Below are positions 49,123-49,507 of a DNA stretch of 64,000 nucleotides, piece by piece. The notes beneath the pieces were generated by a model. That model had not been told where the DNA came from. It saw only the letters and a program-made list of their open reading frames with translations, and searched no databases. The stretch is from positions 176,017 to 240,016 of the forward strand of contig CAWFCQ010000002.1 of NCBI GenBank assembly GCA_963814375.1. Reading direction: 5' to 3'. The position numbers and the translations under genes were made by a program. This DNA is from an uncultured Chloroflexia bacterium (GTDB lineage: Bacteria > Chloroflexota > Limnocylindria > QHBO01). How positions within the stretch are numbered: position 1 is the stretch's first letter; the number at the start of each line of letters is the position of its first letter.

Positions 49123-49434
49123 GACAAACCCCTCCGTCGCTCTGGACGAAGGGGTGCTTCGCGGTACCACCTGAGCTTGACCGATGAGGTGGTGGAGCTG
49201 GGGGGACTCGAACCCCCGACCCCCTGCATGCCATGCAGGTGCTCTCCCAGCTGAGCTACAACCCCACGGATTCGGTCGGTCCTCTCTTTGGCGCGGATAT
49301 CGGGCGCCACCCGGCCCGGCTCGTCACCGGGCTGCTCGACGGGCGAGTTCCGCGCTCCTCGATTCGCCGGCTTCCACCGTCCCGGCTCGCTCGTGAACGA
49401 GGTTTGCGCGTAATGCTCCCGCGTCAACGCATCG
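49123..49434 (-). ncRNA. T-box riboswitch, Leu (CUC specifier), SD-sequestering type, with embedded tRNA
   Basis: Stem I with GA motif, GAGCGAG, GGTGGAA and specifier GAA-CTC (49347-49345); Stem II and IIA/B; T-box AGGTGGTACCGCG (49172-49160); 11-bp hairpin 49155-49128 covering GGAGG. Confidence 0.9.
49190..49265 (-). tRNA. tRNA-Ala(GGC)
   Basis: 76-nt cloverleaf, anticodon arm CCTGC-ATGGCAT-GCAGG, G3:U70, GTTCGA T-loop, encoded CCA. Confidence 0.97.
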
Positions 49435-49507
49435 TTTTCGAGGATAGCACGGCGTCCGGTCGCCCTCAATCGCAGTGCGGTCTTGACACGACTCCTATAT
49501 TGACAAG

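Follow-up and report, generated by a model that had tools for sequence, protein, structure and literature searches.

Can a leader RNA that senses tRNA-Leu also house the complete gene of a different tRNA and still work as a switch? The question is raised by a 64,000-nt stretch of DNA from an uncultured Chloroflexia bacterium (hereafter the window), in which a T-box leader on the minus strand precedes the genes of a GNAT-family acetyltransferase and of leucyl-tRNA synthetase (LeuRS, the product of leuS), and in which a 76-nt tRNA-Ala(GGC) gene lies between the two strands of Stem III of that leader. The source genome is a bin of 2.5 Mb with 70% G+C, 89% completeness and 4.5% contamination, and the window is on its contig C2; all coordinates of the leader, its promoter and the genes under its control refer to the minus strand. 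Based on the motifs of the leader and on their conservation in other genomes, we consider it likely that this is a working, Leu-specific (CUC) attenuating T-box leader of GNAT-leuS, in which the apical loop of Stem III is replaced by a complete and working tRNA-Ala(GGC) gene.

A T-box leader with a tRNA gene in Stem III

The Rfam T-box model RF00230 matches positions 49139-49436 from end to end with the tRNA in place (model positions 1-219 of 219; 51.4 bits; E 1.8e-10 in a search that covered the 451 bases of 49050-49500), and the sole large insertion in the alignment, 89 nt in the loop of Stem III, consists of the tRNA and its short flanks. The Rfam alignment and the fold place Stem I at 49333..49431 (model positions 1-105), with a GA/K-turn motif, an AG bay, a GGUGGAA distal loop and a specifier loop that presents CUC (Leu) at 49347-49345, followed by G (GAA-CUC-G, 49350-49344). 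Stem II (49332-49314) and the Stem IIA hairpin (49313-49301) come next, and the loop GGCGC (49308-49304) could pair with GCGCC (49294-49290) to form the IIA/B pseudoknot, an element beyond scoring by the tools used; in the alignment of the genus its two strands change jointly, from GGCGC/GCGCC to GGCCU/GGGCC in five rows (L010, L018, L022, L027 and L030). The purine string GAGAG (RRRxG, 49286-49282) adjoins the 5' strand of Stem III, GACCGA (49281-49276), while the 3' strand, UCGGUC (49184-49179), is followed by a conserved AA (49178-49177). The resulting motif, 5'-RRRxG-Stem III-AA-3', is given in sections of a T-box review as the hallmark of an aminoacylation-sensing discriminator (PMC7583486).

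The T-box sequence and antiterminator occupy 49139..49176 in the Rfam alignment and comprise helix A1 (CUCAGG/CCAGAG), the bulge UGGUACC and helix A2 (GCGAAG/CUUCGU); the UGGU of the bulge (49169-49166) is the complement of A73-CCA, in which the tRNA-Leu(GAG) of this genome ends. A terminator hairpin at 49120..49154, formed by CCCCUUCGUC (49154-49145) and GACGGAGGGG (49138-49129) with the tail UUUGUCGUG, is present in the minimum free energy fold of the leader and is kept in the genus. The segment CUUCGUC belongs both to the antiterminator, as the 3' strands of helices A2 and A1, and to the 5' strand of the terminator, which makes the two structures mutually exclusive. The fold of the whole leader has a z-score of -1.45, which at 67% G+C is not significant by itself. 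A Shine-Dalgarno sequence and a conserved ATG lie downstream of the terminator hairpin, and a terminator with a U run followed by such a translation start points to control by transcription attenuation.

The nested gene (49190..49265; ARAGORN and Rfam) scores 62.5 bits with the Rfam tRNA model over 49190-49265, against a cut-off of 29, and has the cloverleaf, the anticodon GGC, the G3:U70 pair and the A73 of a tRNA-Ala as well as an encoded CCA. Three conserved bases, CGU, stand directly 5' of it, so that the residue at -1 is U. Apart from its twin on contig C5, it is the only tRNA-Ala(GGC) gene of the window's genome; the nested copy is the sole tRNA-Ala(GGC) in all five near-complete Limnocylindria genomes as well, and in four cultured carriers the nested genes are the only tRNAs among the pattern matches (the check spans 10 genomes: G000, the five Limnocylindria and the four cultured strains). 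GCC and GCU together make up 194 of the 385 Ala codons in four open reading frames of the window, and given this codon share and the sole copy, tRNA-Ala(GGC) must be well expressed from this locus. By its sequence, the nested tRNA should be functional. A tRNA-Ala(CGC) gene is at 62051-62126 of the window, 12.8 kb from the nested gene; in L078, L081, L098 and L163 (1102-1175 in the last), a tRNA-Ala(CGC) gene is found ~250-390 nt upstream of the nested tRNA, just ahead of the leader promoter.

In all these sequence features, with the exception of the window's own bit score, the leader is a T-box combined with an ordinary tRNA-Ala. An initial annotation, made from the letters of the window, had described a T-box for Leu whose two Stem III strands enclose an entire tRNA-Ala(GGC); the description holds in every detail checked, and its positions for the -10 element, specifier, Stem III strands, UGGU bulge, antiterminator and terminator agree with the sequence.

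Covariation and conservation of the composite

Leaders that combine a T-box with a nested tRNA, here called composites, recur in many other genomes, and 103 of them were compared. The pairing of Stem III across the tRNA was examined in 100 distinct composites with the helix anchored right after RRRxG and right before AA. When each locus was paired with its own flanks, a mean of 5.36 contiguous pairs was obtained, with at least 5 bp in 77/100, compared to a mean of 2.59 pairs and at least 5 bp in 18% when flanks of different loci were mismatched; the first five pairs occur in 28 different combinations. In a MAFFT alignment of 96 composites (alignment A1), all five Stem III pairs vary on both sides and 84.2% of cells are paired, while pairing in the tRNA helices reaches 99-100% and 13 of their 21 pairs show compensatory changes. 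Covariation over the whole structure is 0.413 vs. 0.134 in shuffled alignments, none of 500 of which reaches the observed value, and vs. 0.05-0.09 with a slid partner. These comparisons show purifying selection with compensatory changes on both RNAs and, by the covariation of its strands, that Stem III pairs across the tRNA.

The identity elements of the tRNA are invariant: G3:U70 and A73 are found in 103/103 composites, which represent 49 distinct tRNA sequences, and the pair 3:70 is G:U in all 96 alignment rows. U is at -1 in 85/103 composites, and CCA is encoded in 83/103; in the other 20, which include six of the seven loci fetched from a second family, f2, it is not. From N73 to the T-box sequence there are 10-99 nt, with a median of 23 nt.

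The initial annotation had suggested that the embedded ACCA end could compete in cis. In such a case it would pair with the leader's own UGGU bulge, a median of 23 nt downstream, and either mimic an uncharged tRNA or block the site. The universal A73 and the CCA encoded in most composites would fit such cis competition, but the composites in which CCA is not encoded speak against it. According to sections of the review cited above, moreover, the discriminator senses a free 3' end sterically and rejects extension beyond A76 (PMC7583486), and an internal CCA runs on into the trailer. A73 and an encoded CCA are also ordinary features of tRNA-Ala genes and require no special explanation. We therefore regard cis competition as highly improbable.

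The trailer between the 3' end of the tRNA and the 3' strand of Stem III is a hot spot for extra hairpins of widely varying length, as in L003 (1750-1775), L036 and L037 (both with trailers of ~125 nt), L026, L028, L029 and L030.

Distribution in Chloroflexota and Bacillota

BLAST of the 361-nt region against 60 relatives gave a full-length match with 80-90% identity in 26 of 36 genomes of the same genus, a partial match at a contig end in four more and, in family f2, a weaker match spanning Stem I to the tRNA in 7 of 11 genomes; the composite was counted as present in 29 of the 36 genus relatives. ARAGORN placed a tRNA-Ala(GGC) at the corresponding position in 37/37 of the relatives' loci, and all seven f2 loci have an end-to-end Rfam T-box around the tRNA with 69.8-96.7 bits, the highest score being that of L037 (96.7), which is above the RF00230 cut-off of 93 bits. 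The specifier context GAACUC is kept in the genus and in f2.

The search was extended with a pattern scan of one genome per species over 185,579 species, in which a tRNA T-loop was required 20-50 nt upstream of a T-box sequence and the identity of the tRNA was unrestricted. It gave at least 119 stretches, and 80 loci from the matches listed were analyzed. Sixty-nine of these 80 carry a tRNA at the expected place, which is tRNA-Ala(GGC) in 69/69 and is followed by a LeuRS gene on the same strand in 64/69; GAACUC is found in 65 of the 68 loci analyzed for it among the matches listed. Of the remaining loci, L061, L087 and L094 are without a tRNA call because the end of the locus cuts them, and L094 was recovered whole as L162. 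L082, with an apparent tRNA-Thr, has an unrelated long-arm tRNA beside a chance GGTGGAACCGCG and is not a T-box; L049, L064, L069, L076, L080, L118 and L120 lack a tRNA as well as LeuRS and were taken as chance matches.

Going by record titles, the carriers among the matches listed include Limnocylindria, Thermomicrobiales, Sphaerobacteraceae, Ktedonobacteria, Anaerolineae and Caldilineae of the Chloroflexota, and, on the Bacillota side, Syntrophomonadaceae, Peptococcaceae, Thermoanaerobacteraceae and Thermacetogeniaceae. At least five of the carriers listed are cultured, i.e., Thermosyntropha lipolytica, Desulfofundulus thermosubterraneus, Desulfitispora alkaliphila, Desulfotruncus alcoholivorax and Tengunoibacter tsumagoiensis. 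The T-boxes of T. lipolytica (L162; 130.9 bits) and D. alcoholivorax (L160; 130.7 bits) match the model from end to end, with the tRNA as their one large insertion, and exceed the RF00230 gathering cut-off of 93 bits despite the insert. In even samples searched with a strict pattern, there were matches in 38 of 401 Chloroflexota genomes and in 58 of 401 genomes of the phylum of Thermosyntropha, and a reversed-pattern control gave 0/401 and 0/401. Within Chloroflexota its occurrence under the strict pattern is patchy (13/18 genomes in family f1, 9/35 in f25 and 0/25 in f3). The strict pattern undercounts, prevalence is estimated from samples, and absence applies only to the genomes searched. 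Some counts include the unpublished genomes G006, G034 and G310, on which no conclusion depends.

The bin that holds the window could itself give cause for doubt, given its completeness, its contamination and its two highly similar colinear blocks, and the initial annotation had raised a chimeric assembly as a possible source of the arrangement. The same junctions are, however, found in more than 100 independently assembled genomes, isolates included, which together with the empty reversed control excludes both chance and chimeric assembly; the comparative data refute a mis-join, and its probability is practically nil. The same data place the nested tRNA and the covarying Stem III, for which a survey of relatives had been proposed in that annotation, in leuS leaders of Chloroflexota and Bacillota alike, so that what had been taken for a local novelty of Chloroflexota is widespread in two phyla.

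The colinear blocks of ~26 kb, 92-93% identical, are C2:212491-239797 (window 36475-63781) and C5:239854-266254, each with its own T-box/tRNA-Ala composite and its own tRNA-Ala(CGC); similar twin tRNA arrays are on C4 and C8. The twin T-box on C5 also matches the model from end to end with the tRNA as its one large insertion (38.6 bits). Because of the second block, the bin probably contains a mixture of two related populations; large duplications would be the alternative. In D. alcoholivorax DSM 16058 (L160 1326-3028), the Leu T-box with tRNA-Ala(GGC) is followed by a gene of the fatty-acid CoA ligase family, not by leuS. G843, on the Bacillota side, has identical pattern matches at C5:61657-61710 and 65655-65708, 4 kb apart, which suggests that the composite is tandemly duplicated there.

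Evolution of the composite

In a LeuRS tree of the window and 59 named carriers, a branch with 99/99 support splits two clades. Clade 1 (24 rows) is dominated by Bacillota, with 19 Bacillota, 2 Chloroflexota and 3 rows with other labels, and clade 2 (36 rows) by Chloroflexota, with 33 Chloroflexota and 3 rows with other labels; the LeuRS of the window is nearest (90%) to that of a record titled Candidatus Limnocylindria. Given the make-up of these clades, the composite mostly tracks the phyla, with a few transfers or mis-binned contigs. Four contigs that carry the composite (L050, L119, L073 and L048) are in bins labeled Proteobacteria, Methylocystaceae or Acidiferrales, and their LeuRS fall inside the two clades, which suggests that they are either mis-binned or the result of transfer. 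The tree and the distribution indicate that the composite is old and widespread upstream of leuS in many Chloroflexota and Clostridia-type Bacillota, and would fit either an origin before the split of both phyla or one old transfer along with leuS.

A sister family of the same class, f3, has tRNA-Ala(GGC) upstream of leuS at L172 2729-2804, L173 2895-2970 and L174 2856-2931, at a distance of 100-160 nt (~2 kb in L174), and none of these three loci gave a T-box match at E 0.01 or better. In L173, the one f3 locus read, the tRNA is immediately preceded by a -10-like TGCTACACT and followed by a hairpin. Family f3 looks like a lineage in which the switch was lost while the linkage of the tRNA with leuS was kept. 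In the f3 genome of L174, a fluoride riboswitch (4742-4819 on the minus strand; 44.6 bits, cut-off 34) lies ~1.8 kb downstream of the tRNA.

Promoter and transcripts

A putative promoter of the leader is at 49441..49469, with the -35 element TTGAGG (49469-49464), a 17-nt spacer and the extended -10 element TGcTATCCT (49449-49441), of which TATCCT occupies 49446-49441; a transcription start would be expected near 49434. Both hexamers are kept in the 28-row alignment of the genus. Sixty-six loci extend far enough upstream to be examined for a promoter, and in 23 of them a sigma-70-like site matches at least 10 of 12 consensus positions. In 21 of these 23 the site precedes Stem I and lies 172-204 nt before the tRNA; ten are perfect (12/12, TTGACA-17/18-TATAAT). 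In Bacillota composites, sites of 10-12/12 occupy the relative position of the window's promoter. These comparisons show that all the defining T-box motifs are retained and that a strong promoter, as judged by consensus, stands just upstream of Stem I.

A different reading is that the tRNA and the T-box are independent: the tRNA would have a promoter of its own, and the T-box would be a decaying relic or would work only via Stem I and the downstream element. The f3 loci, where tRNA-Ala(GGC) lies upstream of leuS, in L173 with a -10-like element of its own, and no T-box was matched, could be taken in this sense, and so could the Ktedonobacteraceae locus L046, in which a TATAAT-like site precedes the tRNA by 42 nt (see below). 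But all elements of the T-box, 5' as well as 3' of the tRNA, are conserved and show covariation, the gap between the 5' strand of Stem III and the tRNA is only 0-20 nt in many loci, and of the 23 loci with a strong promoter-like site, 21 have it ahead of Stem I. Independence of the two is accordingly very unlikely.

RNA-library data were available as Logan contigs (0.30-0.39 share of words) from close relatives, in which transcript starts, ends and strand are not visible. Metatranscriptome contigs from two studies bridge both sides of the tRNA (X15 record 2, corresponding to 49156-49379, and X16 record 10, corresponding to 49127-49361), and two further RNA-library contigs span its 3' junction; DNA carry-over is possible for all four. 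The bins without cover, in the coding part of the GNAT gene and upstream of the promoter, are uninformative. Contig ends at 49268 in two studies were considered as processing sites and rejected, since they fall exactly where the block without variation in the genus (CGU and the tRNA) begins and are better explained as breaks of the assembly graph. The RNA-library contigs weakly support one bridging transcript.

Proposed order of events

Based on these features, we propose that one strong promoter upstream of Stem I would give a single transcript that runs from Stem I through the tRNA to the discriminator, and that Stems I and II of this transcript would capture tRNA-Leu(GAG). The tRNA-Ala may fold as a domain of its own where the tip of Stem III is exposed to solvent and leave the binding of tRNA-Leu(GAG) undisturbed; that insertions in Stem III occur and are tolerated in T-boxes is stated in sections of a review (PMC7583486). 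Termination or read-through would be settled co-transcriptionally, when the 3' strand of the antiterminator is made, a few tens of nt after the tRNA emerges. Because this decision starts a median of 23 nt past the last base of the tRNA, RNase P is unlikely to act before it. The suggestion of the initial annotation that processing serves as a timer or an irreversible OFF switch loses its ground for the same reason, the attenuation decision falling before processing could reasonably act.

Each transcript, whether terminated or read through, would also be a pre-tRNA-Ala, from which RNase P, with U at -1, and 3' processing would excise the tRNA after the decision. RNase P prefers U at -1; the 3' end needs an endonucleolytic cut or trimming where CCA is encoded, and an RNase Z-type cut is expected where it is not. 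The supply of tRNA-Ala(GGC) would be constitutive and would come mainly from abundant, mostly terminated leader RNA. In read-through transcripts, excision would, as the initial annotation had also supposed, detach the Stem I-II sensor and leave a leuS mRNA that begins just upstream of the (anti)terminator hairpin, a predicted 5' end like that of the Bacillus subtilis thrS leader. The sensor RNA would have to coexist with the cutting that frees the tRNA.

The same cuts could be more than maturation. Processing may be a selected regulatory step that sets the 5' end or half-life of the leuS mRNA, resets or inactivates the switch, or frees a Stem I-II RNA that binds tRNA-Leu in trans. That the composite is retained across two phyla, with some 50 different tRNA sequences, suggests that it is not just a frozen accident, and with the 3' end of the tRNA a median of 23 nt before the T-box sequence, a cut there would leave the terminator hairpin at the 5' end of the mRNA. 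Precedents are found in sections of a T-box article, where the B. subtilis thrS mRNA is stabilized when its leader is cut immediately before the terminator and RNase III cleavage of the Staphylococcus aureus met leader destabilizes it (PMC7913692). An attenuation T-box, however, decides once, during transcription, and has no need of a timer; the linkage of tRNA-Ala(GGC) with leuS survives in f3 where the T-box is lost; and the linkers between Stem III and the tRNA vary freely, so that N73 and the T-box sequence downstream of it are 10-99 nt apart. Regulatory processing in this sense is possible, though we think it rather unlikely. It is likewise doubtful, though worth considering, that the nested tRNA is an integral, selected module of leuS control, the obligatory maturation of which would yield the sole tRNA-Ala(GGC), a free Stem I-II RNA and a hairpin-capped leuS mRNA. 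If it were, the free Stem I-II RNA might hold tRNA-Leu in trans, the lifetime of the leuS mRNA would depend on the cut, and LeuRS synthesis would be tied to the capacity for tRNA maturation, which would explain the retention in two phyla.

Several observations weigh against a working attenuating T-box whose nested tRNA is processed after the decision. First, the 51.4 bits of the window's T-box are below the RF00230 gathering cut-off of 93 bits. At curated Rfam thresholds only two tRNAs are reported in the window, and the T-box is visible only at E-value thresholds. Against this stands the insert-free valS T-box of the same genome, which reaches 58.4 bits and is likewise below 93, so that the shortfall reflects the lineage as well as the insert. 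Second, the U tract of the window's terminator is weak, in contrast to other lineages where it is strong; TTTT is present within 90 nt in 57/103 composites. Third, a scan of 48400-49700 with simple promoter and terminator consensus sequences found no site of either kind, a result that is uninformative here because the conserved TTGAGG/TATCCT pair scores just 8/12. Fourth, L046 has TTGTCG-17-TATAAT inside the leader, 42 nt upstream of the tRNA and overlapping the region before Stem III, which might match by chance or might serve Ktedonobacteria as an internal promoter. Fifth, Stem III directly adjoins the 5' end of the tRNA in L041 and L114, and such a junction should slow RNase P. Finally, a purely passive passenger explains the retention in two phyla poorly.

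Relation to known systems

The leader shares with canonical transcriptional T-boxes (RF00230; Bacillus leuS, glyQS and tyrS) the Stem I specifier, Stem II, IIA/B, the RRRxG-Stem III-AA motif, the UGGN bulge that matches the cognate discriminator and the competing antiterminator and terminator. It differs from them in having, as its Stem III loop, an entire tRNA gene of another amino acid specificity, and because it houses an essential tRNA gene, this leader would have to be cut. Large or lineage-specific inserts have been described before. The S. aureus met leader has a 150-nt insert of three stem-loops between IIA/B and Stem III (PMC7913692), stem Sa of staphylococcal glyS is another lineage-specific insertion (PMC9177973), and translational T-boxes tolerate insertions in Stem III or helix A2, as sections of the review report (PMC7583486). 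Such cases show that large structured inserts can be accommodated in the region of the linker and discriminator. Those inserts are plain hairpins with a role that is unknown or consists in contacting the tRNA, whereas the insert considered here is a gene with its own maturation.

Cleavage of the B. subtilis thrS and S. aureus met leaders, in the sections that treat it, parts the sensor from the mRNA after the decision and affects mRNA stability, and the thrS cut just upstream of the terminator is at the position of the 3' end of the nested tRNA (PMC7913692). RNase P cleavage of riboswitches is a related processing of regulatory RNA. In the known cases of leader cleavage an ordinary RNase target is cut, whereas here the predicted site is a pre-tRNA and the excised piece would be a functional product. 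In other systems, tRNAs in longer transcripts serve as processing signals, as in the Escherichia coli thrU-tyrU-glyT-thrT-tufB operon, the spacers of rRNA operons and the tRNA punctuation of mitochondrial transcripts; embedded tRNAs freed by RNase P and 3' nucleases define the ends of the neighboring RNAs. Unlike those tRNAs, which sit between genes, the tRNA-Ala(GGC) described here is inside the core of a regulatory RNA that pairs across it.

A tRNA gene inside a T-box is not described in the full-text literature searched, which did not cover the older genome-wide T-box surveys and their supplements, and it is not mentioned in portions of four T-box papers (PMC7583486, PMC2494555, PMC7778990 and PMC7913692). 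There is a small but real chance that the arrangement has already been noted somewhere. The novelty claimed for it at first stands in so far as the searched literature is concerned and falls in its confinement to Chloroflexota.

A sensor of tRNA-Leu that physically holds the gene of another tRNA, within the domain that reads aminoacylation and in a large, ancient set of bacteria with culturable strains among them, provides a natural experiment in the tolerance of the T-box discriminator for a structured insert of 75-170 nt, and it bears on the ordering of co-transcriptional switching and RNase P action. It would also mean that terminated riboswitch leaders, which are usually deemed waste, can be productive precursors of an essential RNA. 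In GC-rich lineages such leaders fall below the Rfam cut-off and the tRNA appears as a separate gene, so that annotation probably misdescribes both how leuS is regulated and to which transcription unit tRNA-Ala(GGC) belongs. If excision were to control the fate of the leuS mRNA, synthetase expression would be connected with tRNA maturation in a new way.

Genes downstream and in the vicinity

The first gene under the leader (48535..49095) encodes the GNAT-family acetyltransferase (Pfam PF00583, E 1.4e-16). Its start is the conserved ATG at 49095, the sequence ATGATC being invariant in the genus alignment, and the longest plausible version of the gene would begin in frame with a GTG at 49122. 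The protein stays below the cut-off of every NCBIfam family, which leaves it without a named subfamily. A GNAT gene between the leader and leuS is confined to the window's lineage (15 of the 80 scan loci listed); elsewhere leuS follows the leader directly. In the window, leuS (46043..48538) encodes a LeuRS of 831 amino acids with an editing domain (Pfam, 2.5e-66) as well as catalytic and anticodon-binding domains.

The only other T-box of the genome, G000:C4:50834-51030 (L001 1501-1697), is upstream of valS; it has no insert, and Stem II is absent from its Rfam alignment. Divergent from the leader, a gene for a TetR-family regulator (49508-50122, plus strand) begins ~60 nt upstream of the -10 element of the leader, and the next gene after it encodes a PEP-utilizing (PPDK-like) enzyme.

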